NCBI GenBank assembly: GCA_964016885.1
Contig: OZ024743.1
Span: 72,850,001 to 72,914,000 of the forward strand
Reading direction: 5' to 3'
DNA length: 64,000 bases
Origin: Eledone cirrhosa
Taxonomy: Eukaryota
Shown in pieces: positions 1,702 to 55,360 of this stretch (positions within the stretch are counted from its first letter, which is position 1; each line of letters begins with the position of its first letter). Position numbers and translations under genes: made by a program. The notes under the pieces are model-generated. The model had not been told where the DNA came from. It saw only the letters and a program-made list of their open reading frames with translations, and did no database searches.

Positions 1702-3572
1702 TTAATATAATAATATAATAATATAATATAATGTAATATAATATAGTGCAGTATGGTACATTGTATAGAGTATAGTATAGCGTATGATGCATCATAAAAT
1801 ATAAAATAGTAAATATTTTCAAGTGGGTCTATGTATAAGTAATCAATCCCAGATGAATGCATGTTGACATATAGCCAAAACGTATAATTTTCTTAGGTCA
1901 CAAAAGTACAATAGTACATATACTCACATATATAGATAGAAGTATAATTACATAGATACTCCATTAAAAACATACATACGCATTCATAGATATATACATA
2001 TACATATACGTATACATACATACACGCACACATACACACACATACACATATATACACATACATATATATATATATTCTCTTATCATACATACATAGATAC
2101 ATGTATACCCATGCAATTACATATGGTTATGTACCTTAATGTCCTTAGTCAGTAACGCATGAATCTATGGAAGCTAAAAAATTAAAAGGATAAAATATTA
2201 ACAGGACGGCGTATAATTAGGAGAAGGGAATACTAACAAAAGGTACGTCACATAGAGCTATAGTGAGCTGCTATTTAGAATGTTTAATTAGGTTTATAGT
2301 ACTTAAATATTTTTATTATACTGTGATTACAAGCTATAATCAGTTCTTGTCTTTTTTTCAATAAATCGTCCTTAGATTTAGTAATTTCCAAGATCTCACC
2401 GGAACATAATCTACATTCTCTTCTGTTCCCAAGATATGGAGTTCTTTGAAGAATGGTATCCCACGATAGCTTGAATTCTATTTTTTTTTCTTTTTATAGT
2501 TATTTACTGCTTCAGCTAAAGAAGTAGTGTTAGCTAGTTTAGTATTGTTAAAGCTACTGGAGTGTGCATAATATATTTTCTTAAGTGTGTTCGATGTAGA
2601 TCTTATATACGATTTGTTGGAGTCAGTAGTAGACACAGTACATTTATATATTACATTATTAATCAAACAGTTGCCATTTAAGGGGCAAACGCTTCTATTG
2701 TTGCAATTACAACCATACGTAAGATGGTTGTTGGAGGTACCTACATAATCATCATTAATCCTTGAGCTATTGTTATTGTAATTAATGTTAGAGAGAGAAT
2801 GAGTGCTGCTTTGTGGGTGATTTAGTGCTGGGGTTGTATTGTGATTTTGTGTTATGTTGTTTTTTTGTGTTGGGGATTTGGGTGGTTGTGTTTTCCAGGT
2901 TGAAAAATTGTATTATTTATCCTTTTAAAAGGTGCAGTCTTATTTAAATTATGTTGTGGTGGTGTGGTCATATTATTTTAAAGTTTATAAATATTGTAAC
3001 TGCTTATTTTCTGTTGGAGATTGTTTGATGTAGAGTATGAGAATGTAACAGTATATCTGTTAAATATTTGGTGGTATCTGTGGTTTGGTGGAAAATGTTT
3101 ATATAGAATTTCGAAGAATTTTGGAGGGATTTGTCCAATAGTTTGCAGGTTGAAGGGTACGTTGTACCATGTTATGTTTCTTTTGCGGTTTTTAGTTAAG
3201 TTCTTATTTTCACTTATATTAATGTGCTGTGTTCTAGAAGTGTTCCTATGGTTAGTATTTGTATTTGTGAAATTTGGTAAGTTGCAGTGGTTGTATTTGG
3301 TGTTATTATTGGGTAGATTATGAGAGGTTGAATGATTGGTAGTCATATGTGAGTTGTTAACATTAGTCATAGATCGTGTAGTAATAGTTGTTGTGGTTTT
3401 TCGGTTGTTTGGTGTGATAGGAATGACCCCATTAGGCATTTGTTTCGATGGTATTATTTGGTGTTTGTAAGTTTTGATAGGTTTTGTATTATCGTCCATA
3501 GTATATATACACAGCAATTTATTAATATCAACGGATTGCCGTATATATATATGTATATATATGTATATCAAT

Positions 3573-3632
<60 letters not shown>

Positions 3633-3850
3633 TTAATACGTATTTACTGAGTATTCAGTAAATATATATATATTCAGTATATAATACACAGTAAATAAAT
3701 ATATATACATATATATATACATATATACACACCAAGTTATTATTATCAACGGACTATATCTTTTAATACGTATTTACTGAGTATTCAGATTTTAATGCTA
3801 CATAAATTAAGTTAGAATTACATTTTGTAGTCATCTGTTTTTCCTTATAA

Positions 3851-9765: not shown

Positions 9766-9775
9766 GACAAACTTT

Positions 9776-9970
9776 TATATAGAAATGGCTTCTACAGGAC
9801 TAGAAATGTTTCATTCCAAGAAAATTACCAGGAAAGCTGATGATTTCCTTCGAGTGAAACAGTTCTAGTCCTGTAGATGCCATTTATATATTAAATGTTA
9901 TTGTATATACTCTTCTAATGTATTGAGTGCCTTACTTACTGTGGTTATGCCGGATTTAACCTGGGACTCA
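9776..9970. mobile_element. Family-B HHR element, head-to-head inverted, with tail
   Basis: Plus strand CTGATGA-tttccttcgagt-GAAA-cag ttctagtc ctg-TA at 9837-9875. A degenerate antisense copy lies at 9785-9835. Confidence 0.8.
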
Positions 9971-9983
9971 CATGTCTATCTAT

Positions 9984-10241: not shown

Positions 10242-12172
10242 ATGAACGCTGCGTCCAACGAAAATGGTGGTGGAGAGGCGGTAAGACTACAAAGCTCGCA
10301 GTCAACATCGTCTTCTTCACTAGATACTATAGAGATGGAAAGACAAAATGAAAATGCAAAAACATATTCATATCAAAACAACACAAATGACACCAAACAG
10401 TTCAATGACAACAAAAATAACAGCAACACCAATAATGATGATAAAAACAACAATGATAACAACAACAAAGAAAAAAATAAAGACAACACCAATAACACCA
10501 GCATCAAAGACAACAACAACACCAAGGAAAATACGAATAATATCAACATCGGTGACAACAAGAATAACAACAACAATAACAACAATTATGACAACAGCAC
10601 CAACACGGATAATTCCACAAAGAAACCAAAAACTCCTTTGCAGAGACAGTTCAAAAACAGGAGGAACTGATATATCTCGACATAACAAATGCTGAACAAC
10701 TTTTAAAGGACGCTAGGAGATATGTCACTTTCCAAAAAAATGGTGCTTTCAGCATCAATTCTCCGGTAGAAATTCGCAAGGAAACTGCTCTCAAAACGAT
10801 AGTTTTTAGGACAGTTTCCAATTCTACCCGAAAACCAGTCCAATTATCACAGAAAGAAATTGAACTGGTTTTCAAAAGTTGAATGAATGATATTGCATTC
10901 ATTCAAAGAAGCAAACTTTTTGGGAGTATTTCGGTACTCATGAAGGATCAATTGACGGCCCCAAATTACTCTGTGTCGCCAATTGTATCCAACCTGTACA
11001 CCTTTTTCCCTACATACATGGGAAAAAGGACACAAAAGATCAAAATCACGAGTGTCACACCAAAGGTGAACATATGGTGGATACTGTGCGGCTTCATCAA
11101 TTTTGATGAAGACAGAATACTGTCAGTAGGAAAGTCCACCAGAGATGTATTCAATGGGACTAGCATTGAAGTTCTGGTGCAAATGAGCCCAGAGCGGATA
11201 GCTATGATCACACAACGTGTACTCCTGGACGGACTCACCTATATAAACTTTTCGGTTGAGCGTAGGCGGCCTTCATGTTACCATTGCTTTAGCAGGGGTC
11301 ACCTGAGGGCTTCCTGTCCTAAATTAATGAATAAAAAAAAGGCTCTTCTGCCGACACCCATCAAAACAACACGACCACCAACACCACCACAACAACAACA
11401 CCAACACACAAAAATAACCACAACAAACACAGTCCCACCCAACCCCACTCCACCTAAAACCACTGCAAAATCACATACAGACACAACTACTCCCCAAGAC
11501 ATACCCCTCCCCAATCACACAGACGATACAACAGATGAGGCTATCTCGCCATCACCCAGTGAAGACGAGGGAGAACCCCATCGCTCGAAAAGAAAGAAAA
11601 GACATCACAAAAGCAAAAAACCAGCAAAAACTACCACAAACATACAACCACTAATACAAACAACAAAAACATCACAAACGAAAACCCCACCTCCTGAAAA
11701 CAAAATACCTACAACAAAACGAAAGCACACACAAGAACTACAGACAAAAACAAACACAACACAAGAAAATTACACTTACACTTACATAAACACTGAAAAC
11801 AAAACACTAATGGAGAAGGGAAAACTTTCGCCCACTATTAAACATAGCAAAAAACTGAACCTAAAACTGATTAGGGTCCCTATACAAACTTATAGGTCCC
11901 TAAAAGAAACATTTGAGAAGGATGTGGGGAATTCCTGCGTGAAACCACTCAACCGAGTCCTTCTCAAATGTCTCCCCACAAGCCAGACACCCCCATCCCA
12001 CCAGACCCCACCACACCAAACATCTCCGTCCCCACCCCGCGGGAAACCACCACCCATCCAGACAACCCCTCCAACAACCCCATGGAAATCGTGCGGCCTG
12101 GTCTCCAGGAGACGAAGGGTGAGTGATCTCTTTTCCTCTTTTAACTTTTCAGCACCAACATGGCGAATATAA
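10242..12172 (+). pseudogene. LINE ORF1 (gag-like): Asn-rich N-terminus, CYHCFSRGHLRASC zinc knuckle, Pro/Thr-rich C-terminus
   Basis: ORFs 10242-10670 and 10883-12172 are joined by an open frame after a frameshift near 10650, with one TGA at about 10880. Confidence 0.8.
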
Positions 12173-15100
12173 GAGTTGGATGTGTGAACGTACGCGGCCT
12201 GGGGATGACCTGGAAAGAGGGCAAACTCTTAAACGACCTCAGGTCGCACAGTATGGATGTGGTAGCCATTTGCGAGTCCAGGATCCACAGCGAGCGACAG
12301 CTGCCCCCCCCCCCCCCCATCTTCGATGACTTTGAGATCTACGCATCTCTCTGTCAACCGGGGCGTGGGGGCGGAGTTCCCGTTTTGCTGCGGAAACACC
12401 TGGGCCTCGTAACACAGACGGTACATCTTGACCCGGAGGGTCGACTGGCGGTCCTAGACGTTGACGGTAGTGAAGGTGGAGCCTTCAGGCTGGTGGCCGC
12501 ATATGCCCCATCCGGGACACCATGGCCAGACTTCTTCAAACGTCTAGAGACTTTTCTGGGAACGTCTCGCTCCCTGCTGTTAGTGGGGGACTGGAATGGA
12601 ATCCTAGTTGCACGTTGGAACTATGTGGGAGCAGTTAATCGACCGATTTGACCTGGCCGATAGATATCGACTAGATTTTCCGACTGCGCCACTGTGGATG
12701 TGGAGTAATCGTAGCGGAACATCTAGATCGTACCTAGATAGGGTTCTAGTTAGAAATAAGGATAGAGACATGTTAAGCTGTCCACAAATATTCATAGTTG
12801 CCTATTCAGATCACAAACTAGTGACCTGCATGGCCAACCTTGATAGAACCCATAGACAAGGACCCGGCTACTGGAAGCTGAACTTGTCGTAACCGACAAG
12901 CAAAGCCTACAGTAGACGGATTAGCACTTTAGTTAAACAGCACTTGACAGGGGCCATTGTCAACAACAGATGGTGGTACTCTCTCAAGAGGGCAGTTAGA
13001 TTAGACTCGATAGTTTTTAGTAAATAATTAGCGTTAGATAGAAATAGAACCGAGAAGGAACTGGTATATTAAGTAGAAGAGGCAATTAGAAGTGGCAACG
13101 TAGCCAGCGTGCTAGCAACGAGAACGGACTTGGACCAGTTCTTCGACGCAAAGCTGGAGGGTTGCGTTGTCAGAAGCAAAATAAGTGCTCTGGGAAACGA
13201 GGGAGCCAAAGCTGTTAGCTGGGCCCGAGTGACGGAGGCAAAAAGTGGCAACAAGTCCACGATTCGGTCTTTGGAGGACCAAAACGGACGCGTGATACGT
13301 GAGCCGAAGCAGATGTGTGCGGCTTTTCAGCGGCACTTTGCTCAACTGTTAGGGAGGGGCGGCGCGCCGGGAGAGGCAATGGATTTCGGTCCATACCTCG
13401 ACGGCCTACCGCGACTCTCGGACAGCGAGGCAAAGTTCTGCGAAAAGCAGATTTCAGCCGCTGAGATAGGGGACGCGCTGAGCCAATGCGGCAAACGCAA
13501 ATCTCCAGGTCTCGACGGTCTACCCTACGAATTTTACGTAGCAATGCCGGACTTATTCTCCGGTCTCCTGGAAGCGGTCTACTGCAACTGGCAACAGAAC
13601 GGAAGAATTCCCAGTTCTGTAACCGGGGGCGTGGTCACACTATATCAGGAAGGACGAGAATAAGGGGGATGTCATAACCACAGAGTTACAGATTTTGGCC
13701 AAGGTGTTTGCAAAGAGGCTGGCGCTTGTTTGTCGAGAACCTGGTGGGAGAAGCGCAGACATGCGCAATCCCGACCAGGTCTATACACGACAACCTCCAC
13801 CTCATGCGATACATCATAGAGAGGGTAGGGTGTAAACCCGGCTTCGGTGGGGCCCTGATCAAGTTGGATAAGTCTAAGGCTCTCAATAGGGTTGACCATC
13901 GTTACCTGGATGCGGTGCTCGAGGCGGCAGGCTTCGGACCCGTGTTCAGGGGCTGGATTGCTGCAATGCACAACAGCAACATCTGCTCAAGGGTCAAGGT
14001 GAACGGCTACCTCTCGGAGCCGTTCCATATTACGCGATCCATTCGACAGGGATGCCCTTTCTCCTCCCTTCTGTACGTACTGACTCTCGAGCCACTACAG
14101 CGGAAGCTGGAGCTATTGCAGGGCATCCCTCTGGAACCGGGACTGCGGAAAGCGACGTCGGCCTACGCCGACGACGTGACAGTAATGGTGTCGTGCGCCT
14201 CGCAAATCGAGGAAGTCGGCACCTTACTGAAGGAATACGAAAGTTTCACAGGAGCGAAGCTGAACCGGGACAAGTCCATCGGTTTGTAACTCAGATCGTG
14301 GAGAGGCAAACCGATGCCTTCCAATGGCCGGAAGGACCGGTAAAGCTGCTCGGAGTCTGGTTTGGTCCGGACCTCCAGGTGGAGAAGAACTGGAACGAAC
14401 TGACGGCCAAGGTGTTTGCACTCACCCAGAAGTGGGCCGAGTGCAAACTATCCTTGAAAGGTCGAGCGGAGGTGGCGAACACTTTTATAGCGTCCGCCAT
14501 CTACTGCCTTGTCCAGCCAAAACGCTCGCCAAAATGGAGCGCGCGCTCTTCCGATTCCTTTGGAAGAGGCGGGCTCCTTTGGTGAGAAGATCCATCTGCT
14601 GCCAACACCCTTCTAACAGAGGGCTGTGGATGCCGTGTTTGACGATGCGCAAACACGCGCTCAGGCTGCGGCATCTCTACGTATTCCTCACCGGACAACT
14701 GGTGTGGGCCCCGTTCGTGAGGCGAACCTTCCCACGACTCGTCTCGCTGACCGAGCTGCAGTCCTGGGTCAAGCAAAGACCGAGGATAATGGGCGACTGG
14801 CACATCGAATGTTCTCAGGCGCTCACAGCCCTCTGGCAGGCGGACTCGGCGATCAGTGGAGACTCCACTTCGTCATTCTATAGAGGGCTGATCCGCAGCA
14901 AGTGCGACGACGCGCTCCGTGAAACTCTAGGCGTAGAGGAAGATGAACTGGCCAGTCTGTTCGGTAGAACCTTCCGCCCGGGACCGATGGACAACTTCCA
15001 AATGTCCCTGGCCTGGCAGTGCTACCGAGGAGCTCTACCAGTTCGAGACAAGCTCTACAGACATGGGCGTCCGGGCAGGGACCCTGCAAAAAAGAACTGT

Positions 15101-15513
15101 CCGAGGTGCGTCCGAGACAAAGAAACCGTCGCGCACGCATTCATACAGTTCCCGGGCGTCACTGACCTGTGGAGCTATGTAGAACGATTATTGTCGCGGG
15201 TGGGACCAATCCGGTTGACCACCGAGTCCATTGTCATGATCAAACCGCCACCCTGCTTCAAAAAGGAAGGAGAGGCGATTTTCCTTTGTGTGATAGCTAT
15301 GGCGAAAGAGGTTGTATGGTGGACAAGGTTGAAAGGGCTGAGGTCAGACACCTTTCTCTCCGGCCAACAACTGATTCTTTTTTTCAAATACCATTTGGAA
15401 GAAGAATCAGGATGGAGAGAGAGGTGCTGTACCCCAGCAAGTTTTATGAAAGGTGGGTGAAAGTGGCGAGAATGGCCCGAGTGAATAGGCCTTCTCTCTA
15501 TAACAGCCTGTAG
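12160..15513 (+). pseudogene. LINE ORF2: AP endonuclease, reverse transcriptase and C-terminal Cys finger, with frameshifts and stops
   Basis: Motifs NVRGL, GDWN, YLDRV, SDH, GYWKLN, KSPGLDG, RQGCP, YADD and CPRC occur across consecutive frames. Confidence 0.93.
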
Positions 15514-24451: not shown

Positions 24452-24454
24452 ATA

Positions 24455-24570
24455 AGTTTATCCCGGGTTCAATCGGGGATAACCACAGTAAGCTACTCAA
24501 TACAAAGCAGAGCTTCCGGATGATGTCTCACGAAAGAAACAGTTCTAGTCCCGTCGAAGCTTTTCTATAT
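24455..24570. mobile_element. Family-B HHR element, rearranged and degenerate
   Basis: agcttc-CGGATGA...GAAA-cagttctagtcccg-TC-gaagct joined to an inverted tail. Confidence 0.65.
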
Positions 24571-24572
24571 AT

Positions 24573-24620
<48 letters not shown>

Positions 24621-25671
24621 ATATTAACAAATGGAAACTATATTTATAAAACCATATGTATTGTATTATACATATTTCAAGGGCCACCAAGGCAGATTAT
24701 GGTGCGCTTTCATCAGATAAAATACAATACAGATTAGTTTCATAAATAAATATTGACATACCCTGAAAAAATGCAAACTTTAACGGTTGGAGCTTCCTGG
24801 ATAGTGGAGATATTTGATTTACTGTTATTATTTAGTATGCAAATGAGTATCGGAAAGGTTTAAATAACAGTATATTTAAATTAAACCGTTGGAAGATAGA
24901 AAAAAGAAAGAGAAAAAGAACTGTTTATATATATATTTTGCCAGTGGGAGAGAGTAAACGTGACTATATTTAAGTGAGAGAAAATATCGATAGAATCTTC
25001 AAATCCAAAAAGAATCCACCTTCCAACAAAGTACTAATGGATTTTGAAAATGAGATCATCTCTAATATACAAAGCATTAAATTTAAAAAAAACAACTTCG
25101 TAGGCCAGGATTACCTAAGAAATCTCAAAAATAATATAGAAAGCTTTGAAAAAACGGAAAAAATTCTAGTCAAGTCAGATAAAGCCAACAATCTTTATGG
25201 AATGCAAAAGGATATTCATAACGATCTTATATTGAAGGAACTAAGGAAGAAATACAAAAACAAAAAACCAGTGATGACCTTGAAAAACTACATACGGAAG
25301 CTTCTTACATAATGCAGGAATTAGACATCGAAAATAGGACACAACCCTTCATGCCTAGGAAACCAAAAATTACTATGAAGGACCATAAAAGAAATTTTGA
25401 AATTGAATTACCAGTAGCAAGAATATTTTAGACAGAATCATACCACAAATTAAGGAATTATCTTATTTAAAATTATGGAAAGGGACTAATGAAGTTATCG
25501 ATTGGTTTAAGGACATTAAATATAACTATAATAATAAATTTATTCAATTGGATATTGCTAATTATTACTCCTCCATCACTCCTAATCTACTTAATAAAGC
25601 CCTCACATATGCATTTAAACATACAGATTTAACTAGTAATGAAATGCACATTATCTTAACTGCACGGAAAA

Positions 25672-25826
25672 CATCATGCTTTGGCGCATAGAGTTACGGC
25701 CCTTGCCATTCTGAGTTCAAATCCCGCCGAAGTTAACTTTGCCTTTCATCCTTACGGGGTCGATAAAATAAAGTACCAGTAATACACTGGGTTATTGCTG
25801 GCCTTGTGCCTAACGTAGAAACAATT
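25672..25826 (+). mobile_element. 5'-truncated SINE nested in the Penelope RT
   Basis: B-box and core present; it splits ILTARKT|LIKFNNHLW. Confidence 0.88.
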
Positions 25827-28346
25827 AATTAAATTTAACAACCACCTCTGGACTAGAGCAGACAGAGATAGTAATTTCGATATTACTATGGGGTTATCCG
25901 ATTCGGCACAAATAACGTATCTTGTGGGGCTTTTTATTAATAATACTCTACATAGTAAAATACCGGAGATGACCGGTGGTTTATATCGCGACGATATGCT
26001 ACTACTTATAGAAAATAATAATAACTGTAAAATAAATAGGAAAAGAAAAGAAATTATACAATTTTTTTAATTGCCTTAATCTTAAAGTAGAAGTAGAGAA
26101 TAATTATAAAATAGTTAACTTTCTAGATGTAACTTTAAATCTTAATACTGGTCTTTATTATCCATTCCACAAAATAAATGAGAACCTAAACTATGTTAAC
26201 TTTAATTCCAATCACCCCAGATCCGTTAAAAACAATATAGTAAATTCTGTGCAGCAACGTATTTCTAGAATTTCAGCTAATAAGAATATTTTTGAAGATA
26301 AAGCACAATATTATAACGAAGCGTTAAGTAGTAATAATATTAAATACATTGATAATAATAATGTGCCAACTAACCATAACTATAAAAATTATAATAGAAA
26401 ACGTTACAATAACTCGAAAAACAAAAAAAGAAATAGAACAAGAAATATATTATGGTTCGCTCCCCCTTTCTCATTAAGTATTAACACTCCTATTGTTAAA
26501 TTATTCTTTAAAGCTGTAGATAAATGCTTTCCTAGAACACATAGGTATTACTCAATATTTAATAGACATACTATAACATTATCGTATTCCACCACTAGTA
26601 ATTTAGCGCAGAATATTAATAGAATTAATAATAGAAACTTAAAACCTAACCAGAATACCATTAATAACCCTAGTAACATCCAATATAATAGTACGGCTCC
26701 TAGTAACTTAAATTTAGATAAATGTAACTGTAGATATAAATCTAACTGTCCTCTAAATAATAATTGTTTAGTTAAAAATATAGTATACTATTGTAATGTA
26801 AAAACTAATGTAAATTCCTTTAATTATGTAGGCTCTACCTCCACAGATTTTAAGTCCCGTTTTAATAACCATAAATGCTCTTTTACGAATATTAGTAAAA
26901 AATCATCAACTTCTCTATCTAATTTACTATGGGACCTAAAATCAAAAAACACTAACTATTCTTTACTTTGGAATATTATCTCCAAACTCCTTCATTCAAT
27001 GCTTTATCTGAAAATTGTGCTCTTTGTATAGAGGAAATATTCTTTATGTTAAAAAGTAAGAATTCTGTTAATTTAAGGAATAATTTATTCAGTTCTTGTA
27101 AACATCGGTTAAATTCAACTTTTAAATATATATATAAAATGTAATATATAACTCATATCTTTTACATATCCTCTATTATTATTATACCTATCGATAATCA
27201 TTAGATTCCTTTTATATGACTGCTTGGAACTCCCTTAAAGGAAATAACATTTTTTCTTGAAACATTTTTCTTGATAAACCTACTGAAGGATTTAAGGAAA
27301 ATATTTTGAAAATTCATCTGACGGGTATAGGAAAATTATAATTCATATTTTATATTGTGCATTTTTATATTTCTATATTCTTATATTTTTCAAATGCTTA
27401 ATATATATATATCCAAATGTTTATATATATATGATAAACATAGTGATTTTTTATGTATATGTGGTATAACCTAAAATTTATAATTTAAATATATTTTATA
27501 AATATATTCTTATGAAATATTTTTTTTTGTGCTTTATGCTTTAAATATATTCTTATGACAATTTTAAATGTTATAATTTCTATATGTTGTGACGTTATGG
27601 CAAGTAAATTTATGTTTTAACTGTTATACCTTTATAACAGGTAAATTTATGAATTTATAAATTTATGACTTAGTATAAAATAATATAAGATTCATATTCT
27701 AATTACATTCTTAAGATAGAAAATTTAACTTTTTAACTTCTTAACCTTGTAGCATTTAATCCTTAGAGTCAACTGAGTTATTAATAAATCACTAATAACT
27801 TCCTTTACGCTGTACTGCTATTATAATACAAATAAGGGGTTATTTTTCTGTAAACTCTCGGAATTTCCATGGGTTTAGAATTATTTGGATACTTTTAACC
27901 TACAATTTTTTAATAATTGATAATTAATGATAATATATATTTTATTATAATAATAATATATATGTTTTTATAAAAATAATATATATTTTTTAATGATATA
28001 TATTTTTTAATAATATATAATAGTTTTTATTTTTTAATTTTTTTAATAATCTAACATACACATTTAAACTAATGTTTAAACTATTAAATTATTAATTAAA
28101 CACTTAATCAAATTTATTAATTAAGTGTACCCACTCACTTCTAACTGTGACTGACTGTATCCCTACGGATTTGTTTGATGTCCAGCAACTTTTGCAGCGA
28201 TAGAAGTCTGAAAACTTTTATAACCTCAACTAAAGCTAATAGCAGTCGCCTTGTCTCTGACTGACTGATGTGTCTTCATATGAGGGAATGAATTGTGTGA
28301 GAGAACGTCGTTTTTTTCTGCCTCATATCAAGAATTTGAAGACAAT

Positions 28347-32343: not shown

Positions 32344-32423
<80 letters not shown>

Positions 32424-32435
32424 GTTTTAATATAG

Positions 32436-32492
32436 AAGAGCCTCTACAGGACTAGATCTGTTTCATTCGTGAGAAATCATCAGGGAGCTCTT
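32436..32492 (-). ncRNA. Type I hammerhead ribozyme, family B
   Basis: agagctcc-CTGATGA-t ttc tcac gaa t-GAAA-cag atctagtc ctg-TA-gaggctct. Confidence 0.8.
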
Positions 32493-34330: not shown

Positions 34331-37300
34331 ATGAAATATAAGAATCAAAGAACTGTTCAAAACATTATTGTGCTTACAGCTGTTTCCTCCAAACCGAGGT
34401 TTGGATTCTTCGGAGCAATTTATTAATGCATGGACAGTTATATGACCTCCTTTTCAGCCGAGAGGCATACCGATACATATTCAAACATTGATACATATTC
34501 AAACATTGTGGGTCAACATTCATTACAGAATTTAGAGTGGCAGTACACACTTCGAGATTACATTTATATTAATAGGTACAATCAAAAATCAAAAATACAG
34601 GTTAAAATACAACATGAAGATAAGCGGTTATATAGTGCAAATGTTATATGTGTGGCACGCATGTGCGTCTTGTTTATATAGTGTGGCAGAGAGATATGTG
34701 TGGTAGAGGCACTTAGGTAGGTAAACAAGAGTGTTAGGTTGGTAGATCTGGTGGCAAATTCATTATATGATTGATAGAGTCTGTGTGTGGAGAAATGTTA
34801 TAAGCATTAAAAATAGTGCAAGCATTAAAAGTGTTAAAAGTATTGGAGATGTACAGCGAAGGGATGTCAAGTATTTCATGTACTTCGACATTTTCATGGT
34901 CAGGGGAGTGTATTTTTCGATTATATGCCCCTCACATAATCCACGACAATTCGATATTGAGAGTTTGACAATCCAGTTAGAGATCGTAGTCTGGTGTTCT
35001 TTAGTTCAATACAGGAGGCTGTTACGTTTCGAGAAACGCCATTGAATACCACCCGGAAGTGTGTGTGTGGCTAAGGGGAGTTAATGCATGCGGGGAGGTA
35101 ACTCCGGGGTTTCTATACCTAGCTATTAAAATGTGTCACAGTATACACCCTAATTTCTATGGTGATGCGCATCCCCCAAAAACATTTTTAAAGCATAAAG
35201 TGTATTAACTATAGAGTAGTTTAATTAAGTTATGCTGAAGGTGATCATATTATTATGGTGGATTAATCCATCGTAATGTGCCACAAATGGAAATTATAGA
35301 TGATGAGCGAGGATTCTAAATTAATGATCTCTGTGGTTGTAGTCTACTCATAGGACCAGGCGCGGTGATTGCAGGATTGCTTCAGGACCGAATGATCTCT
35401 GGTAAGTTCTGGGTCATCGCTTGCTACATTGGATGTCGAAAGATAATCATCCCCAGGCCGGCCAGAGGTCAATCCGCGGTACTCGCGACCCCTCTCTGAC
35501 CGTCAGATCATCCATATATGTACAACCCGCACGGCAGTTGCAATGCATTCACTCACTGCGCTCAGCAGCCTGGTCCTACTGCTCAACAGCGTTACTAGAT
35601 TAAATCGTTTATCATTTGTCTAAGGAAGGTGTTTCCTCTGCACAACACTATCCAACCGATCAATTCATGCTCAAATTACCCATAGAGCGGTGTAGTGCCG
35701 TTCAAGTGGGTGGATGTTGTCACACCTGACGTAGAGGTATAAATGGGTATTCTCCCTGCGAAGGGTTCCAGAGGGACGTCGTTGTTTGTGTTATATTAGA
35801 TCAGTTATTGTTGGGTATGTGGTATAAGGTGTGTCTCTGGTGTTTGATGCTAGATGTGGTGTTAGGTTCCAGTCCGACATTGCTATATATTGCTGATGTA
35901 GGTATGTATGTTGACGTGTGTATGTTGTGGGTTCGTCTTAGGGAGAATTGTTTAGACGGGGTCCGTATTTGTTAATAAAGTGAGACTCCTTGCTGATGCG
36001 CTGGGTGTGGAGGACATTATCTTTAAATTTGTAGAGGGGAAAGATTCTGAATTTGGGATGATTTGGGGCGGCACATGTATCAATGTGTTCACTCAGTCGT
36101 ATTTTCCTGTATTCTCGTATTTTAATTTGGGATCTATGGACAGTCATGCGTTGGCGGAGGCTGTTTTTGGTCTGGCCTATGTATTGTTCTCGACAACCTG
36201 AGCAAGTTAATACATATATTGGATTTTCTGATGCGCATGTGAAATTGTGTTTTACTATAAAACGTTGTCCTTCTTTGAAATAGAATTCCGAACCCTCTAT
36301 TAGGTTGATGCATATGCCACAGTTGGGTCTATCGCTTTTTTTATTATGGTTTTCGTTGTTGTGGTTGGCAGTACTTTGGCATGTGTTAGGATGTTTTTCA
36401 TTGATTTAGATTGTCTTTTGCTCTTTATGATATCGTGTGTTCGTAGGATTTGGTTCATTCTATGGTCCTTTTTTAACACAGGGATGTTCTGGAGGATCGT
36501 TTCAAAGGCCTCATTGTTGAGGGTTTTGTGTGTGGAAATGTATGGAAGAGCTTTTAGTTTCGGTTGATTTACTTTAGGGTGTCTAAGGTCCTGGGTACTG
36601 AGTTTTAGGGCACGTTGGATTCTATTGTCAATTAGTGATGTCTATGAGTGTTTCCTTTAGTTCTTGTAGCCATAACAGGTATTTTTATTGGAGACTATAG
36701 TACAGATTCTCTTGGCTAAGTTGTAGGGAATATTAATTTTAACGTGTCTAGGGTGGCAAGAGTTGAAAGGAAGATATTGCTTGGAGTCTGTGGGCTTGTA
36801 GTATATGTCTGTTTCTATTTTTTGTTATGAATCTTAATGAGGATGTCGAGCAAGCGGGGTTTTTGATGGCTGTATTCCATCGTGAAGTTAATATTCGTGT
36901 TGAGCCCATTTACAAGGGTGTGAAAATCTTTAAGTTTCTCGATGTTTTCGTGCCAAAGGATGAAGAAGTCATCTATATATCGCTTCCAGTTCCTTTCTAT
37001 GTGTAAGTGGAGAGTGTTTCCGAATTTGTTTAGTACTTTAGTGTAGAGGGTGATTTCCAGGTATCCCATGACTAGGTTGGCATACGTGGGGGCTGTTTTC
37101 CTTCCCATAGCGGTCCCAGATTTCTGCCTGTAGGGTTTGTTATTGAAAACGAAGTAATTGTTCTCCAAGATAAATTTGAGTCCCTCTATCACGAATTCTT
37201 TTTTGAAGCGTTGTGGGAGTTCATTGTGGTAATTATCCAGCCAGAATTGGATAGCTTCTATTCCTAGGTTGTGGGGAATGTTGGAGTATAGGTTGACTAC

Positions 37301-39880
37301 ATCGAACGTCACTAGTAGGGTTTGTTCAGAAAGGGGCATATTAGGGAGCTGATTCAGCATATCTAGGTCGTCCCTTATATAGCTTTTGATGTGTTTGAGA
37401 AAAGGCTTGAGAAGGGTATCAATGAAGTTGCTAAGGCGGTGGGTTTCGCAAGCGGGGCCTGCTATTATAGCTCTTAATTTGAGATCATTGGGTGAGGGGA
37501 CATTGATGACTATGTATGTGGCTTCCTTGCATGCCTTACTTATTAATTAGCTTTTATGTACTTTAGGGATACCGTAGAAAAGGCTGGATTTACTTGTGAA
37601 GTCTGTGATGAAGCTGAATTCCTTGTTAGTGAGTCCTTCTTTGTATTGGTTGATCAGTGTTTTTAGGTTTCTCATAATTTTCTGTTGATTGTAGTGGTCA
37701 GCCTTTTCGTAGTATGTTTCGTTTTCAAAAGTGGAGAGCGCAAAGTTGATATAGAATTCTGTCTCCATTAGGACTACTGTACTCCCTTTATCAGCCTCTT
37801 TAATTCTAATGGTTCTGTCGGTTTTAATCTATTTAATTCTTCCCATTCTTTCTTGTTGAGGTTTGGCTTGTGTTTTTGTCTGTGCAAGTGTTGGTAAGGG
37901 AAGATTGTGATGTGTTCATAGAATTCGTCCAGGATTTCATTTCTACCTTTCGATGGGATGTAATTGCTTCTATTTATGGCTAATGATTCATACTCATTGT
38001 ACTGGTCGAATAGTTCTTCACTGAGTCGTAACTTTCTACAGAAGTCTGTGATGTCTTCCTTCATTTCATAGTAGTTAAGACGTAGTGGGGTCGGTGTGAA
38101 TTTAAGACCTTTGGAGAGTAAGTTGATAAGGTTGGGTGTTGGTTTTGCACTAGTGAGATTGATAATTTTTATTACTCTCGGTTTCTCCTCCCTGTCTTGT
38201 GTTATTTTGTTTGCCTGTATCTGTGTGCTGTGTCTAAAAAATGGTTGGGGTAGAGGGGTTGTATGCTGATGTTAAATGGTCTCCTGTGTTTGTTATATTC
38301 CTTGTTGTTGTAAAATGTGGTTCGGGTTCGTGGTTGTAGATTGAATGGGGTTTTCCTGTATTGCGAGTATGGATGTGTGTTTCTATGTGCCATGTTGGAT
38401 TGTGGTGTTATAAGTGGCCTACGTTGTTGGTTGTATCGTGTGGTGTGGGTTTGTTGTGTATTGTGGAAGCGAGAGTTGAGAAAATGGAAATTACCTTGCT
38501 GTCCCCTTGAAGCGGGGAAGTCTATCATGGTGGTGGTATCTTTTCCCTATGTTTGACGATGAGGCATCCGCGTAGTAGTTGAGTGATTTGGTATGGTGTC
38601 TCCTTGAAGGGGGAAAGTTGTAAATGTCATTCTGGGGGGTGTTGATTTCTAGGGTTTTTGTTCCTTCTTATGGTAGCGAGGTTGGGAAGTTCATCTTCGG
38701 TGTGGTGTTTCCTTCTTCTTTTGTTATTGGCTGGGGGGTTTGCGAAGTTGTTGTGCGGTTCGGTTATGGGTTTTCCTATTTTTATGAACGGGTTATTGGA
38801 GGTGTAATCCATAGAAAAGTCGATTCATAGTGTAGGAACCAAGCGACACTTTTTTTCCCAGAGTTGAAGGGAGTTCAGTTCTTCTCTGTTGTAGTCCCCT
38901 TTCCTTAATTTAGAGATCTTTTCTACCTTGGGGCCTTCAGTCTTATTGTTGATTTCCAGGAGGATCTCTTCATCGATGGTTTTGATTTTTTCCTCATTTG
39001 TCTGGGCCCTCAATTTAAGAAGTTCAATTTCGGTCTTCATTTTTTCCAATGCCATTCTTTCCCTAAGCTGTCTTTGAGGTTTGGGTTCATTTGGAATGGA
39101 CTATATTTGTATTTTACGGGGGAGAGTTAGAGGGGTTGAGTTAAGCCATTTTTCATATATCTCCGCTTTGTTGTGATTTTGTATCACCTTCCAGAATAAG
39201 AACTTTCTGTCTCTGAAGGATTTGTTCCATTTTGGAATTGTTTGAATTTTCATTTTGTATGAATCAATCTCACATGGCTCTTCGTTGGTTTTTCCTGGGT
39301 TGGTAGTAGTGAACATAGTTTGGATAGTATCGCAAAGGTTTTGAAGTTTATCGCCGATTTCGGAGGGTTTGTATCCGGTGACGGTTTCCACATTTGTGGA
39401 GTCAAGTTTGTCGACCAGCACAGATAAGTTAGTGTTAATTTTCTTTAGTTCCTGTAGAATCTTTTCATTTGTGTTGATAAGAGTTGTATATGTTTTGTTG
39501 CCATTTTATGTATCTCGTGTGAGGATATGATATTTAAAAGAATAGAAGTGTAACACACGAGTTATGATATATTGGTAAAAGTAAAAGAAAATGCTGACAA
39601 ATTGTTCCCAGTGAAAAATAGTTTAATTAGGAATAAGTAAAAATTAGTAATAGTATTGGTTAGTATTCAGTTTTGGTTTTAAGTTTTACCGGGTGCGCAT
39701 TTCTAATGCTTTCAAAAATAATTTTGAGATAGAGCGCCCGTGATTAGTTTTGGAAATTCTACCTGTTTTATGTAAAAAAAAGTGGCTCCAGATGTATGAA
39801 GAAATTATTGTGGTCAAAACAATTTTGATTGATCGGTAGAGATCATGTGAATATTAAAAATTGATTTTGCACCAATAGTA
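34325..39880 (-). mobile_element. Near full-length degenerate Penelope-like element (Neptune-like)
   Basis: The coding region at about 39504-35938 has LSKGLKFTPTP, FYGIPKVHK, FDVVNLYSNIP, GTAMG, RYIDD, a Cys linker and GIY-YIG. There is a 1.6-kb 3' UTR ending in an HHR. Confidence 0.92.
34371..34417 (-). ncRNA. Minimal hammerhead ribozyme (U4C) at the 3' end of the Penelope element
   Basis: tgct-CCGAAGA-a tccaaac ctcg gtttgga g-GAAA-cagctg-TA-agca, with palindromic stem III ACAGCTGT. Confidence 0.8.
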
Positions 39881-40023
39881 TATGTTGGTTGTTTACCGAC
39901 ACCTCAGTATGCAGAATGGAGCACTCGACGAAGTACGCAGGTTGGTTTGGTTACTCCGGAGTAATGTAAAATAAAGTAATTAAGTCAAATATTTAAGATT
40001 TGGCTTCGTTTATTAAAGTTGTT

Positions 40024-40077
40024 CTGCTATATATATTTCCGTGACAGCCATCATTGGCTGTGACCTCTTCAGGCAGT
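40024..40077 (-). ncRNA. Minimal hammerhead ribozyme, family C
   Basis: ctgc-CTGAAGA-ggtcacagcca atga tggctgtcacg-GAAA-tatata-TA-gcag. Confidence 0.85.
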
Positions 40078-41266
40078 TCTAATTGGTGTGGTAGAGACAG
40101 GTACACATGTTGTTAAAGTGTTTTACTCCGTCAATACTCCGATATGTCCAGTTCCTGGTTGGGTTGTTATTTCTCTCAGGAACTGGAATCATATGAATTC
40201 GAACAAACGCATTTCGGCGTCATAGAGCACTCTCTCCTCCCATTGGTCAGTTGGGAGAACATTCCTCAGGCAAAAGTCTATAGAAATTTTTTTCTGAGGC
40301 AAGACATCTGTTGTGGTTGTTTTTGTTAAGTACAGCTGACCTCCTCCCTTGTGTTTATTGGTGTTTGGTGGTCAGCTGGCAGGTCAGCCTTAGTTCTACT
40401 GCTGCTGTCTTTAGAAGAATGAGTGTATGTGGGTGGCACCAATCCCACCACCCGTGGTGGTGGGGGGAAGGTGCCAAACAGATAATGGAATCAGATAAGG
40501 TAAAATGAAGAAATAAAATATTAAAAAATAAGATAAAATAAATTATAAAATAATAAGGTACGATACAATAAAATGAAGAAGTAAAAAAATGAAGAAGTAA
40601 AAAAAAATGAAGAAGTATAAAAAAAAAAATAAATGAATAAAATAAAATAAAATGTGTGTTTGTTATAGCCAATATGAAATATCAAAGAAGAATAAAGTGC
40701 AATATTAAAGTTTGAAAGATTTGGAAAATATTGACTGAAGTATAAAGGCTATGTGTCAGAATCGGGAAATGCAAAGGATTACGATCTTTGCACTATCACG
40801 GGGTGGTGCATTTTAAGAGCAAATGAGGCAAGAGTGGAGTGTAAAACACCATAACCTGAGTGTCAAAATCCGGAAATGCAGAGGACATATGCGTGTATGT
40901 TAACCCACATCGTTGCAAGCCCACACGCACCAACACGGGCCCAGGTGCATCCCATATTCACACATACCCACACACACACAGATTATACAAACACACACAC
41001 CCATAAATATAGATGTACATATATACTCGCACACACACGCACACACATACACACGCAGACACACACACACGCACACACGCACACACATACACACGCACAT
41101 ACACACGCACATATGTAAGTATCAGTGCATGTACAATCTTAAATAACAGGATATTTGTATGGACATATGCATAAGTCTGTGCTGCCATAGGAGTCGATCG
41201 AGGCAGGGGTAGGGTGGTGAAAGTATAGGGGGTAGTTTACCGTGGGCTCGGTCTGGCGGAGTTACT

Positions 41267-41470
41267 GTCCCTATAGCTTGAGGGAAGTTCCCTTCCCATT
41301 GCGTTGTTGTTGCCCATATAGCTAGAGGAAGGTCCTGGCCCTGAGGTGTCTACATGTCGCGAGGAAGTCCCTATAGCTTGAGGGAAGTTCCCATCCCAAA
41401 GTGTTGTTATTGTTCATATAGCTTGAGGAAGGTCCGGGCCTGGGGTGTCTACATGTCCCGGAGAAGTCCA
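41267..41470. repeat. 100-bp tandem duplication at the end of the Penelope ORF
   Basis: gtccctatagcttgagggaagttccc occurs at 41267 and 41367. Confidence 0.9.
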
Positions 41471-43444
41471 TCCTGAGTTTTATCAGGCTGCTTCCACCGC
41501 TGAGTATCTCGAGGGTCTCGCTCAGACATAGTTTGCAGATGCCAGATCCCCCTTTATCAGGTGGTACTTTCCTGATTTTGGAGCAGACCAGAGAGTACGG
41601 GGTCCTGTCCAGCTTGAGCTTCCTGATTATTTCGGAAAGAGCCGTACTTTTCCTTTTGTCCTCCCTGTTAAAGGAATGGCGATGTTTATACCATCGGTCC
41701 TTAAAGTTCGTTGATGTGGCTCCTATGTAAAGGAGTTCAGGGTTGGGGGATTTTACTCTACATCTGTATATTAAGTTCTTCCTTAGGCATTCATTACTAA
41801 GGGGGCATAATGCTGGGTTTCTGCAGTTGCAGGAGGTGGTCGACCTCCGCGTATCTAATGTGGGGTTCCCGTTGTCTGTTTGGGTTACTGGGTCCACCCT
41901 TCTTTCCCTCCACATGGTTATGCCGGGTGCCTATATTGAAAGCTTCCGGTTGTATGTGGTTTTTAAGTCTACCCCGATTAATGCTAGCTATGTGCTGGGC
42001 CACATTTCGCGTGGTAGAATATGAGAGCTTTACAGTGTGTCTGTTGAAGATCTTGCGGTATCTATGGTCATTCGGGAAGCATTTATCTACTGCCCCAAAG
42101 AATGAGCGGGCAATGCTGTTCTTTAGGGCGGCTGAATATGGTGGGTTGTACCACGTGATTTTCTGTCTACTCCTATGTGGGTGGGTTGAGCGTGCGGTGG
42201 GCTGTTGGGGAGTTGTTGGGTTGCTAGTGGTTCCCGCATTGCTGCTTCCCCTTTGGGCTCTATGTGTTCTGCTAACTTCCCGGCCCGTATCTCTGGGGTG
42301 GTTGTTACCCACGCTGGAAGTTCTACGGTGGGATTGTCTTCCATCGGTCCCGCTTCGTGTCTTGCGGTTGGGGGCGTCGGGAACGGGGTGGTTGATATCA
42401 CCCTTGAGGCCGCTACTCGTACCGGGTTTCCTCCCATGGTTATGTGTACGCGTGCCTCTCGCCAATGTGGTGGTGTCGGGTTCATGGTGTTTAGTTGTTT
42501 TTACTCTGCTTGTATTGTTAGTGTTCCCCGCTCCCAGATACCGTGGGTCGGGGTATCCGTTGGGCGGATTAAATGATATATTTTGGCCATGCGCCGCCTT
42601 ATTTAATGCTGCGTTGAAATATTCCGCGTTGCTATCGAAGATCTTCTTATTTGCGGACAGGCTGGAGATCCTGTCCGAGACAGTCTTCACTACGGCCTTA
42701 ATTATTGATCTAGGGTGTTTTGATTTGGCGTTAACATATACCAGTCTCTCGTTGGGCTTGTGATAGGGGTAGTATTGCTCGGTGTTCAGGTTTAGGGTGG
42801 TGTCTAGGAAGTTAACTACCTTTCTATTTGGGTCTAGTTCGATATTGAGCCCATGGTTCTTAAAGAATTGCCGAATACGCCTCTCAATTCTCTCCACCAT
42901 TTTTTCTCCATCATTTTTTTTTACTACTTCATTTTTTTACTTCTTCATTTTATTGTATCGTACCTAATTATTTTATTATTTATTTTATATTATATTTTTA
43001 TATTTTATTTCTTCATTTTACCTTATCTGATTCCATTGTCTGTTTGGCACCCCCCACCACGTGAAAGCGTGGGGGAATTGGTGCCAACCCACACACACTC
43101 ATTCTTCTAAAGACAGCAGCAGTAGAACTAAAGCTGACCTGCCAGCTGACCCCCTAACACCAATAAACACAAGGGAAGATGTCAGCTGTACTTAACAAAA
43201 ACAACCACAACAGATTGTCTTGCCTCAGAAAAAAGGATCTATAGACTTTTGACTGAGGAATGTTCTCACAACTGACCAATGGGAGGAGAGAGTGACCTAT
43301 GATGCAGAAATTCGTTTGTTCGAATTCATATGATTCCAGTTCCTCAGAGAAATAACAACCCAACCAGGAGCTGGACATATCGGAGTATTGACAGAATAAA
43401 ACACTTTAACAACATGTGTACCTGTCTCTACCACACCAGTTCCA

Positions 43445-43499
43445 ACTGCCTGAAGAGGTCACAGCCAATGATGGCTGTCACCGAAATATATATAGCAGT
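43445..43499 (+). ncRNA. Minimal hammerhead ribozyme, family C
   Basis: actgc-CTGAAGA-ggtcacagcca atga tggctgtcacc-GAAA-tatata-TA-gcagt. Confidence 0.87.
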
Positions 43500-43565
43500 A
43501 CATCTTAAATAAACGAAACCAAATCTTAAATATTTGACTTACTTTATTTTATATATATATATATA

Positions 43566-45834: not shown

Positions 45835-45885
<51 letters not shown>

Positions 45886-45966
45886 GTAGGTCCCGGGTTG
45901 AATCGGGGATAACCACAGTAAGTAAGGTACTCAATACATGGCAGAGTAAAATTTTTTTATTTTATA

Positions 45967-46025
45967 GAAGGAGCTTCTACAGGACTAGTACTGTTTCATT
46001 CAGATGAAATCTTCAGGAAGCCTTC
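45967..46025 (-). ncRNA. Intact type I hammerhead ribozyme, family B, in a ~140-bp element (45888-46030) between (TA)n tracts
   Basis: gaaggcttc-CTGAAGA-t ttc atct gaa t-GAAA-cag tactagtc ctg-TA-gaagctccttc. Confidence 0.88.
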
Positions 46026-46030
46026 AGGTG

Positions 46031-46107
<77 letters not shown>

Positions 46108-46550: not shown

Positions 46551-46608
46551 ATACTATAATGATTTCAGTGACCGGGTTCAGTATGAAGCCGGTGACATCA
46601 TCAGGTAT
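46551..46608 (-). ncRNA. Minimal hammerhead ribozyme in a pLTR-like segment (46360-46850)
   Basis: atac-CTGATGA-tgtcaccgg cttcatactgaa cccggtcact-GAAA-tcatta-TA-gtat. Confidence 0.7.
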
Positions 46609-51662: not shown

Positions 51663-51711
51663 AGTCTAACAAAGTATTTCGTTGCACATCTGCAACATCA
51701 TCAGTGGTACT
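51663..51711 (-). ncRNA. Degenerate hammerhead ribozyme
   Basis: CTGATGA-t gttgca gatg tgcaac-GAAA is intact; stems I and III are imperfect. Confidence 0.5.
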
Positions 51712-52373: not shown

Positions 52374-53970
52374 TTACAAGGAATCTTGTAGAGTGAATAG
52401 AGCAATTTTTGCTACATTCACCCACCCTTCAGTAAATTTACTGGGGTCTCTCTTCAGTCTCTCTCTCGCCACTCTGATTCTCCTTCTAAAGTGGTACCTA
52501 AAGAAGGGAATGAGTTGTTGTCCGAAGAGAAAGACATCTGTTCTCAGTCCTCTCAATCTCGTCCACCGTATAACCTCTTTAACCATAGCCACTATACAGA
52601 GGAAAACCACCTCGCTTTTGTTTTTGAAAGAGGTTGGCGGTTTGATCCTTACTATGTACTCGGCAGTCAACTGGATTTGTCCCATACGCGATAGCAGTTG
52701 TTCTGCGTAGTTCCACAGATCGGTTACGCCCGAGCAGTGTACAATTGCGTGCAAGATGGTTTTAATGTCCTGCTCGCGTCTTGGACTCGTCCTCTTGAAA
52801 GGATCCTGCCGGGGCGTCCGTGCCTGTAGATCTTGTCTCGAACTGGTAGAGCTCCACAGTAGCACTGCCAGGACAGAGACCTCTGGAAGATGTCCATAGA
52901 TCCTACAGACTGGTGAGCTCGTCGTCTTCGACGCCCAGAGTCTCTCCGAGCACGTCGTCGCACTTGTGACGTGCTAACCCTCTATAGAATGTCGAAGTGG
53001 AGTCTCCACTGATTGCTGTGCCCGCTTGACAGAGGGTTGTGAGCGCCTGAGATAGATAGATAGATAGATAGATATCTTTATGTATTTGCCACAGGCGCGT
53101 ACAAAAATGGTACATTACAAGACGTGACGGCTGGGGTTTTACATAAAATCATATAACTTTAACATTAACCTCGTCCACCATATTACCTCTTTCGCCATAG
53201 CCACCAGACAGAGGAAAACCGCCTCTCCTTAATTCTTAAATGAAGGCGGCGGAGTGATCCTCACGATGGACTCGGCTGACAACTGGATGCGTCCTACACG
53301 TGACACAATTCCACAGGTCGGTCAACACTGGGCACTGAACAATTACGTGCAGAACGTTTCGATGTCCTACTCGCATCTTAGACAGGTCCTTTTTGCAGGA
53401 TCTCTGCCAGGGCGTCCGTGTCTGTAGCTTTTGTCTCGAACTGGTAGAGCTCCTCGGTAGCACTGCCAGGCCGGAGACCTCTGGAGGTTATGCATAGGCC
53501 CGGACGGAAAGTCCTCCCGAACAGACTGGTCAGTTCGTCCTCCTCGATGCCTACAGTTTCCCAGAGAACATCGTTGCACTTATCCTCCACTAATCCCCTA
53601 TAGAATGTCGAAGTGGAGTCTCCACTGATTGCCGTTTCCGCTTGGTAGCGGGCTGTGAGCGCCTGAAGGCACTTGATGTGCCAGACAACCATTTTCGGTC
53701 TTCGCTTGACCCAGGACTGCAGCTCTGTTAGTGAGACGAGTTGTGGAAGAGCTTGTTTCACAAAAGACAACCACACCGGTTCACCGGTCAGGAATACCTG
53801 GAGATGGCGTAGCCTCAGCGCGTGTTTGCGCATCACCAGCCACGGCATGCCCAGCCCCCCGTTAGAAGGGTGTTGACAGCAGATGGATCTCCTCACCATT
53901 GGAACCTGTTTCTTTCAGAAGAACTTGAAGATAGATAGATAGATATGTTTCTTTATTAGCCACAGGGGCT
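52374..53970 (-). mobile_element. Stack of three 5'-truncated copies of the Tx1-like LINE, joined by (TATC)n
   Basis: 53945-53969 is the extreme 3' end (ccctgtggctaataaagaaaca). 53075-53928 and 52374-53049 encode the ORF2 C-terminus homologous to 14550-15510. Confidence 0.9.
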
Positions 53971-55004: not shown

Positions 55005-55357
55005 TGGGGTTTCTGGTAGATTTCTCCCGAATGAAACAGTTCTAGTCCTGTAGAAGCCATTTCTATATCAAATATTTATACTCTTCTTTGTATTGAGTAC
55101 CTTATTTATTCTAGTTATACCCGATTGAACCCGGGATAAACTTAGCTTATATATAAATATATATAGTATTAATATAGATGAGGGTCTACATGACTAGAAC
55201 TGTTTCCCTCTTTAGAAATCATCAGGAATCCTGATGATTTCTAAAGAATGAAACAGTTCTAGTCCTGTAGAATATCATATATATTAATACTGTTATACTC
55301 TGCTATGTATTGAGTACCTTACTTACTGTGGTTACCTCCGATTCAACCCGGAATAAC

Positions 55358-55360
<3 letters not shown>
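55005..55360. mobile_element. Family-B cluster: one degenerate copy (55005-55145) and a head-to-head hairpin (55165-55293) with tail
   Basis: CTGATGA-tttctaaagaat-GAAA-cag ttctagtc ctg-TA at 55231-55269 is mirrored at 55187-55225. Confidence 0.85.

Follow-up and report, generated by a model that had tools for sequence, protein, structure and literature searches.

Family B, a repeat carrying a hammerhead ribozyme motif in Eledone cirrhosa, forms the pseudo-LTR end, made up of a type I hammerhead and a tail, of several Hydra-clade Penelope-like element (PLE) retrotransposon families. The window analysed here is a stretch of 64,000 nucleotides of contig OZ024743.1 (assembly GCA_964016885.1, positions 72,850,001–72,914,000), and the copies in it are promoterless stubs, probably left where the reverse transcriptase (RT) of the element copied the front end of an uncut transcript into a TA repeat. 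Earlier publications already describe hammerheads at PLE ends, a palindromic loop III and the U·U pair. The new observation is that the 5′ boundary of the copies lies at the first base of stem I, behind a TATAAATA box, and not at the cut site. An earlier note on the window had presented family B as a hammerhead unit of about 140–200 bp; it is not an independent element but the end of a Penelope-like element.

The five loci that had been grouped as one family do belong together, as all of them match the copy at 45886–46032 (blastn E 3e-32 to 3e-7). Between them they contain eight copies of the hammerhead and a single tail-only arm; copies outnumber loci because three of the loci are head-to-head pairs (Table 1). 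The unit measures about 137 nt with a tail and about 63–70 nt without one, and the 200-bp forms are inverted pairs. All the claimed stem II loop variants (ATCT, TCAC, TAAA and TCCC) were recovered, together with a CTTC loop and a 3-nt loop. The core, described as largely kept, is damaged in three of the eight copies (9831, 24514 and 55019), and the supposedly shared U·U mismatch occurs in six, with U-A at 24514 and U·G at 55225. Rfam gave no match at the gathering score.

Table 1. Family B features in the window (unit numbering: +1 is the first base of stem I, 46021 in the 45888 copy).
Feature	Position	Strand	Remarks
Tailed stub (+1 to +137)	45885..46021	-	Belongs to the young subfamily with loop ATCT, from a Hydra-clade PLE; has neither TATA box nor ORF
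Type I hammerhead (predicted)	45973..46021	-	Predicted from sequence and computed energies
Stem I	46021-46017 with 45977-45973	-	GCTTC/GAAGC
Hammerhead core CTGAAGA	46016-46010	-	
U10.1 and U11.1	46009 and 45998	-	U·U pair, base of stem II
Stem II TTC/GAA	46008-46006 with 46001-45999	-	Loop II ATCT
GAAA core segment	45997-45994	-	
Loop III, 8 nt	45990-45983	-	Closed by stem III ACAG/CTGT
Predicted cut	Between 45978 and 45977	-	After triplet GTA, that is, after +44
Tail hairpin 1, ACTC...GAGT (predicted fold)	45928..45948	-	Unit +74 to +94
Second small tail hairpin (predicted), CCCG/CGGG	45892..45907	-	TCCG/CGGA in other subfamilies
11-nt junction insert	46022..46032	.	Duplicates part of stem I and core
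(TA)n target tract at 3′ end of 45888 copy	45841..45884	.	Second tract at about 46033-46073
Tail-less arm, damaged core	9773..9834	-	Head-to-head with 9832..9972
Tailed arm, loop CTTC, core intact	9832..9972	+	Stem I 5′ strand lost in join
Tail-only arm (about +76 to +137)	24453..24512	-	
Tail-less arm, loop TCAC, damaged core	24509..24575	+	
Tail-less stub, loop TCAC, core intact, stem I mismatch	32416..32489	-	
Tailed stub, loop TCCC, damaged core	55009..55142	+	
Tail-less arm, loop TAAA, damaged stems	55157..55231	-	+1 to +1 join with 55227..55360
Tailed arm, loop TAAA, core intact	55227..55360	+	

Among the window copies, only the 45888 copy (core at 46016) keeps the core and all three stems. 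Read from +1, it runs GCTTC, CTGAAGA, T-TTC-ATCT-GAA-T, GAAA, CAG-TACTAGTC-CTG, TA and GAAGC, and thus presents the CUGANGA, GAAA and UH segments and three helices, with stem I open, of a type I hammerhead. The GUA cut triplet anticipated by the earlier note is present on the minus strand as GTA, and cleavage is predicted directly behind it. The insert at the 5′ join is likely to be a templated insert of the repair type, judging from its sequence, and similar junction inserts are present in other genomic copies.

Copies elsewhere in the genome reveal the parent element, whose full layout is hammerhead, tail, RT/GIY-YIG frame, 3′ UTR and hammerhead. Among 20 regions fetched around RT matches, three (L156, L160 and L162) carry the unit directly 5′ of an ORF and the whole or partial unit again about 4 kb further on; in L160 and L162, the units at the two ends are about 4.0 and 4.25 kb apart. 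In a fourth region, L145, the unit is present 5′ of the ORF only. Some copies share upstream sequence, and this leads into a microsatellite-rich UTR and from there into a frame coding for RT and endonuclease. Copies of a second subfamily, with loops TAAT and TAAA, run into a frame of their own, which is 71–84% identical (L243, L261 and L354). As the unit is continuous with Hydra-type coding frames, family B is assigned to the pseudo-LTR end of several Hydra-clade families. The sequence upstream of another copy (L037) was rejected as part of family B, since it belongs to a different element in the opposite orientation.

The unit in L156 is followed by an 823-codon open frame with its first ATG at +184. 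This frame contains RWR (IRWRS, with R replacing the K of RWK), DKT (SDKTKN, replacing DKG), YRDD, CNCPDKTTC (CxCX5C), VY..YIG, CDLC (CxxC) and CMH (CxH). The parts of Craig et al. 2021 (PMC8557442) consulted list RW[K/R], DKT, CxCX5C, CxxC, CxH and a single RT plus GIY-YIG frame as Hydra features, and the L156 protein resembles by eye the Hydra alignment in the portion of its supplement seen. Reading by eye, no CxxC was found 5′ of YIG in the L156 frame, the Hydra criterion being the absence of CCHH. Placement in the Hydra clade is based on these motifs and the by-eye comparison. Family B also inserts into (TA)n, carries a canonical hammerhead in its pseudo-LTR, is arranged in tandem or inverted fashion and has a one-sided tail.

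A Pfam-A search of the L156 parent frame gave no relevant match. A homologue in the window matches GIY-YIG at E 4.7e-4, which does not reach the curated cut-off, and PF01541 is present in the top homologue from the database. Of 7,991 scored candidates, 1,420 are relatives of the family B protein at E <= 0.001, and the best relatives among the matches listed share 37–51% identity. Identity with Hydra-1_Obim was rejected, as its ribozyme differs, and the family B ribozyme is unlike all 25 Hydra hammerheads in the table of PMC8557442, Hydra-1_Obim included. Family B counts as a new family within a known type of element.

Several other elements lie in the same window. A different Hydra-like element occupies 39964–43554 (frames 41325–42936, minus strand, 38–49% identical to the family B protein) and has a hammerhead on each side, at 40072 (-) and 43450 (+), both facing outwards, with a third copy of this hammerhead at 29021. 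Broken Hydra-like RT/endonuclease frames are present at 24974–27031 (+) and about 2290–3643 (-), with 33–48% identity to the family B protein, and a broken PLE of another type, with Pfam matches to RT and GIY-YIG, lies at 35941–38271 (-). A broken LINE with AP endonuclease and RT matches spans 10883–15460 (+) and has a second partial copy, about 75% identical, at 52374–53931. Hammerhead-like motifs of other families occur at 46604 (-), 51452 (-), 51704 (-), 34413 (-), 63661 (-), 63934 (+), 24716 (-) and 62385 (-); that at 51704 has the classic bulge and G-C. A repeat near 299, 22371 and about 23180 has CAGAAGA in place of CTGAAGA, followed by T, a short stem, T and GAAA, and is possibly a variant or rearranged hammerhead. 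Outside the window, L095:23-165 is a distant relative of the unit with TTGAGTAC kept and a similar last hairpin, and the GTATTGAG-AC motif also occurs at the 3′ end of the coral Hydra-2_Amil in the part of the PMC8557442 supplement consulted.

Family B is abundant in its 3.0-Gb, (TA)n-rich host genome. An exact core pattern that excludes stem I identified at least 22,197 cores, and an exact tail pattern had 17,407 matches. A 29-mer typical of the young subfamily with the ATCT loop matched 1,756 tails, a few of them in copies of other subfamilies, and reversed-pattern controls for the core, tail and 29-mer counts gave zero genome matches. The best blast matches to the 45888 copy are 97–100% identical, and its subfamily is therefore young.

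The 5′ ends of young tailed copies were mapped in 72 tail-anchored copies from 70 loci, the first listed of the 1,756 29-mer matches, with four others left out. Twenty-one end at −2 to +1, eight at +2 to +8, 11 at +9 to +38, none at +39 to +51 and seven at +52 to +76; the remaining 25 are long copies that extend upstream. In a family-wide set of 65 copies, 17 end at −3 to +3, seven at +4 to +8 and six at +40 to +48, while 20 were scored at −4 or further out; 14 of these continue a long way upstream, and about three extend beyond +1 only by chance. Neither set has a clear 5′-end peak at the predicted cut. Across the genome, 1,809 exact matches to +1..+24 of the young subfamily compare with 598 spanning −12..+12, and about two-thirds of young copies stop at +1. 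A head-to-head partner is present in 25 of the 45 truncated copies of the family-wide set, and exact +1/+1 joins number about 512 genome-wide, an estimate from 1,024 matches in which most joins appear once per strand. A further 59 joins link +1 to the cut-site side, and these could derive from cut RNA; like the six family-wide ends at +40 to +48, they weigh against the reading of the copies as products of uncut transcripts.

The script found a TATAAATA box in 88 distinct upstream sequences, and in 85 of these it lies 30–34 nt 5′ of +1. The spacers between this box and +1 are unlike among at least five subfamilies, and one subfamily (L337) keeps the TATA box while lacking AG before stem I. Contigs of runs X1–X3, all from one sample, cover the unit heavily and contain opposite-strand joints at the +1 boundary, although contigs cannot show RNA starts. 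A check for a cap-derived G found G at 11 and T at 11 of 24 junctions, a count confounded by the partner arms. Among open-licence papers and bioRxiv, nothing relevant was found on a TATA start or strong-stop product of a PLE, and cephalopod hammerheads surfaced only through the parts of PMC8557442 consulted.

At the other end, 40 of 73 core-anchored copies stop 5′ of the tail (mode +65) and 33 are tailed, mostly ending at +131 to +137; (TA)n adjoins both groups. Each class of 3′ end sits a few bases 5′ of a predicted hairpin, which begins at +74 in one case and at about +145 in the other. The latter, hairpin 2 (GCAC...GTGC), is present only where an ORF start follows; the tailed stubs end before it, and it is also missing from the 3′ end of a lone element. 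In L020:1362-1639, a copy continues about 30 nt beyond the usual tailed end through hairpin 2, followed by eight A's and a restart at +1, as if synthesis had jumped to a short RNA with a poly(A) tail. Pairing of the two tail hairpins in a kissing loop was considered and rejected, as variants such as ATTGAA disrupt the pairing while the partner is unchanged.

The U·U pair pointed out by the earlier note is already in print, and no other state is as common among Hydra-clade elements: it occurs in 14 of 25 hammerheads in the ribozyme table of PMC8557442 (26 rows, one element being entered twice). In the sections of PMC3088659 consulted, U10.1·U11.1 is the best-tolerated mismatch at that pair. Within the window, the unrelated hammerhead at 46604 (-) likewise has T...T at the 10.1/11.1 positions, and the family at 29021, 40072 and 43450 has G-C, G·G and G·U there and no U·U.

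Computed energies favour the dimerisation through palindromic loop III that had been suggested, with a strand-swapped stem III at −15.2 against −1.4 kcal/mol for the hairpin in the 45888 copy. The predicted energy of the active dimer of this copy is −25.0 kcal/mol, compared with −18.8 kcal/mol for two monomers in their minimum free energy (MFE) folds. The active dimer fell below two monomer MFE folds in eight of 16 rows scored, the 45888 copy included (four of 20 rows were skipped); it was not favoured in the other eight, mostly rows with a damaged stem I. A point against the active fold is that in the MFE folds of both monomer and dimer of the 45888 copy, UUC is paired with the core GAA, a shifted stem II register in which G12 is engaged, and the active folds lie 3–4 kcal/mol above them.

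The variation in family B had been ascribed to structural selection, a reading that is supported in part. Differences between subfamilies fall in loop II, N7 and one compensatory change of stem I (GCTTC/GAAGC versus GATTC/GAATC). Private substitutions were counted in 135 young copies, which were found with UTR, RT or tail queries by a finder needing an 11-nt seed and 86% identity. They affect 14 of 1,485 core sites (0.94%) and five of 540 loop II sites (0.93%), the even distribution that the earlier note had itself set against its reading; counts elsewhere were 17/1,080 in loop III, 7/810 in stem II and 7/810 in stem III. Individual copies decay neutrally, and only source lineages look constrained: as the subfamily core is kept despite even private substitution, constraint acts on the source elements. 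A6 is kept in 97 of 100 copies among the matches listed for one subfamily, and a spread core-mutant lineage was rejected, with A6G in two and A6C in one. Covariation over 20 aligned rows, many of them chosen by the exact core pattern, is weak; the observed number of covarying pairs was reached by 187 of 500 shuffles and the covariation cell number by eight of 500. Both-sided change affects the outer pair of the second tail hairpin in four of 20 rows, and compensatory change was found in stem I, but none in stems II and III among these rows.

It is proposed that the TATA box ending the 3′ UTR of one copy would direct transcription from about +1, a start read from DNA ends. RT would begin internally, just 5′ of either small hairpin, primed by (TA)n nicked on each strand, and would run off the RNA 5′ end at +1 to leave stubs of 65 or 137 nt. 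Two cDNAs, often one per nicked strand, may then be joined head to head by short homology, with short inserts. A cDNA passing +44 must come from uncut or religated RNA. The ribozyme would likely cut only as a dimer, once a second hammerhead about 4 kb downstream had been transcribed, and would stay uncut until then; the dimer-action model in the parts of PMC4209133 consulted agrees with such delayed cutting. Internal RT starts and use of uncut RNA are shown in vitro for another PLE in the available portion of PMC11167929. As the stubs lack a promoter and read-through of a head-to-head pair would give one long hairpin, the window copies are unlikely to do anything themselves and are probably inert.

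A wider proposal can be put forward only tentatively, as it is somewhat doubtful: that Hydra PLEs start exactly at the first base of the hammerhead from an external TATA box, that thousands of strong-stop-like cDNAs map this RNA 5′ end, and that tailed long copies come from a dimer-closed circle, LTR-like strand transfer or tandem read-through. One of these three routes is needed for the tailed long copies, because the 3′ end of a lone element lacks hairpin 2. If the circle route were true, it would supply the missing job of the PLE hammerhead. The Drosophila Penelope promoter, internal and TATA-less in the sections of PMC2377424 consulted, weighs against a TATA-driven start, both here and in the main reading.

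The +1 boundary might have another origin in the same parent. It could be a 3′ splice site, as CAG occupies −2..+1 before stem I in most subfamilies, with a T-rich tract ahead in two, and the part of PMC4209133 consulted places the end of a Drosophila Penelope intron at helix I. It could also reflect pausing and short-homology joining at the near-palindromic 5′ strand of stem I, where AGCT and GATTC/GAATC offer ready homology for head-to-head joins. However, the junctions examined have no common exon or leader, and the subfamily without AG keeps its TATA box. Stubs that have no partner (L227, L335 and the 45888 copy) also end at +1, and if RT were blocked by structure, it should meet the 3′ strand of stem I (+50) before the 5′ strand, yet ends do not peak at that point. 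A boundary set by splicing or joining is thus considered unlikely. It is more doubtful again that family B is an independent non-autonomous retrozyme or SINE of about 137 nt, transcribed, self-cutting and self-spreading. Two-thirds of young copies are of stub length with fixed ends, and animal retrozymes have been proposed to derive from pLTRs (bioRxiv 10.64898/2026.07.22.740005), but stubs lack both the TATA box and hairpin 2 and begin at stem I instead of the cut site. Furthermore, loop and tail variants are common to stubs and ORF-linked copies, and copies are dispersed or inverted rather than tandem, with one adjacent direct pair separated by (TA)n (L031).

Least plausible is a hammerhead that does not cut and is a mere passenger, its core kept by common descent or protein binding. 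The 3-bp stem II with its U·U pair, the competing register and the missing compensation in stems II and III all fit this reading, as do core mutants of the one PLE tested, whose in vitro insertion was not reduced in the portion of PMC11167929 consulted. Against it stand a core that is constant across many loop II variants, including the retained A6, the compensatory change in stem I and the cleavage of U·U hammerheads recorded in the parts of PMC7229834 and PMC3088659 seen. The reading of the window copies as stubs of uncut PLE transcripts remains the most likely one. Short tandems are rare; L217 has three copies spaced by about 1.06 kb, and in L362–L364 three matches to the core follow one another at about 221 bp. 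All of these keep the upstream promoter-side sequence and are candidate retrozyme-like derivatives.

In Drosophila HeT-A, a promoter at the 3′ end drives the next copy, and in LTR elements strong-stop DNA is a short cDNA that reaches the RNA 5′ end; both serve as analogies, the latter for the family B stubs. The closest described relatives are the Hydra-clade elements of Craig et al. 2021, which in the sections of PMC8557442 consulted share (TA)n insertion, an inverted 5′-truncated partner, a one-sided tail and a canonical hammerhead, and four of the 25 tabulated hammerheads have the same stem III, ACAG/CTGT. Family B differs in its loop III (8 nt versus 1–3), its tail (about 70 nt versus 30–40) and its unit length, about 4 kb versus up to about 3 kb because of the microsatellite-rich 3′ UTR. 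The upstream TATA box and 5′-end peak are features of family B that are absent from the Hydra description consulted. Cervera and de la Pena 2014, in the parts of PMC4209133 available, describe type I motifs in the flanking repeats of PLEs, mostly as single truncated copies or opposite-strand pairs with a palindromic helix III, as in family B, and propose dimer action and circle formation. Their minimal motifs have G10.1-C11.1, a bulged base and a long helix II, whereas in family B helix II is only 3 bp long and includes U·U, and helix III measures 4 bp.

Poseidon_Ac of Anolis, in the text of Frangieh et al. 2024 (PMC11167929) consulted, has two internal RT starts that define its tail, AT-rich targets nicked on both strands and uncut RNA as its main template, to which family B is likened; it belongs to another clade, however, and its starts lie inside the ORF, whereas the 3′ ends of family B lie in the 5′ UTR before the ATG. 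The U·U pair at the base of stem II is shared with the U10.1-U11.1 hammerheads of Perreault et al. 2011 and with the axolotl retrozyme HHR_Amex2, which cuts weakly alone and better as a dimer (PMC3088659 and PMC7229834, both as far as consulted). The retrozymes of PMC7229834 are tandem non-coding repeats that give circles. In contrast, family B is not organised as head-to-tail non-coding tandems of the non-LTR retrozyme kind, short tandems being rare; its copies are dispersed, single or inverted head to head, and run into a coding element. Like family B, Drosophila virilis Penelope has a promoter in its terminal repeat, but that promoter is internal and TATA-less in the parts of PMC2377424 seen, whereas the candidate TATA box of family B would not be part of the transcript, and stubs no longer have it. 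The role of PLE hammerheads is called unclear in the sections of PMC8557442 consulted. What family B adds to these systems is its anatomy, seen in a family that is young, very abundant and represented by complete copies. The constant 5′ boundary that follows the conserved TATA box, together with the two fixed 3′ ends, yields precise predictions for the Hydra PLE transcript start, for copying of uncut RNA and for the way in which full-length copies regain a promoter, and the family offers a direct test of the role of the PLE hammerhead.
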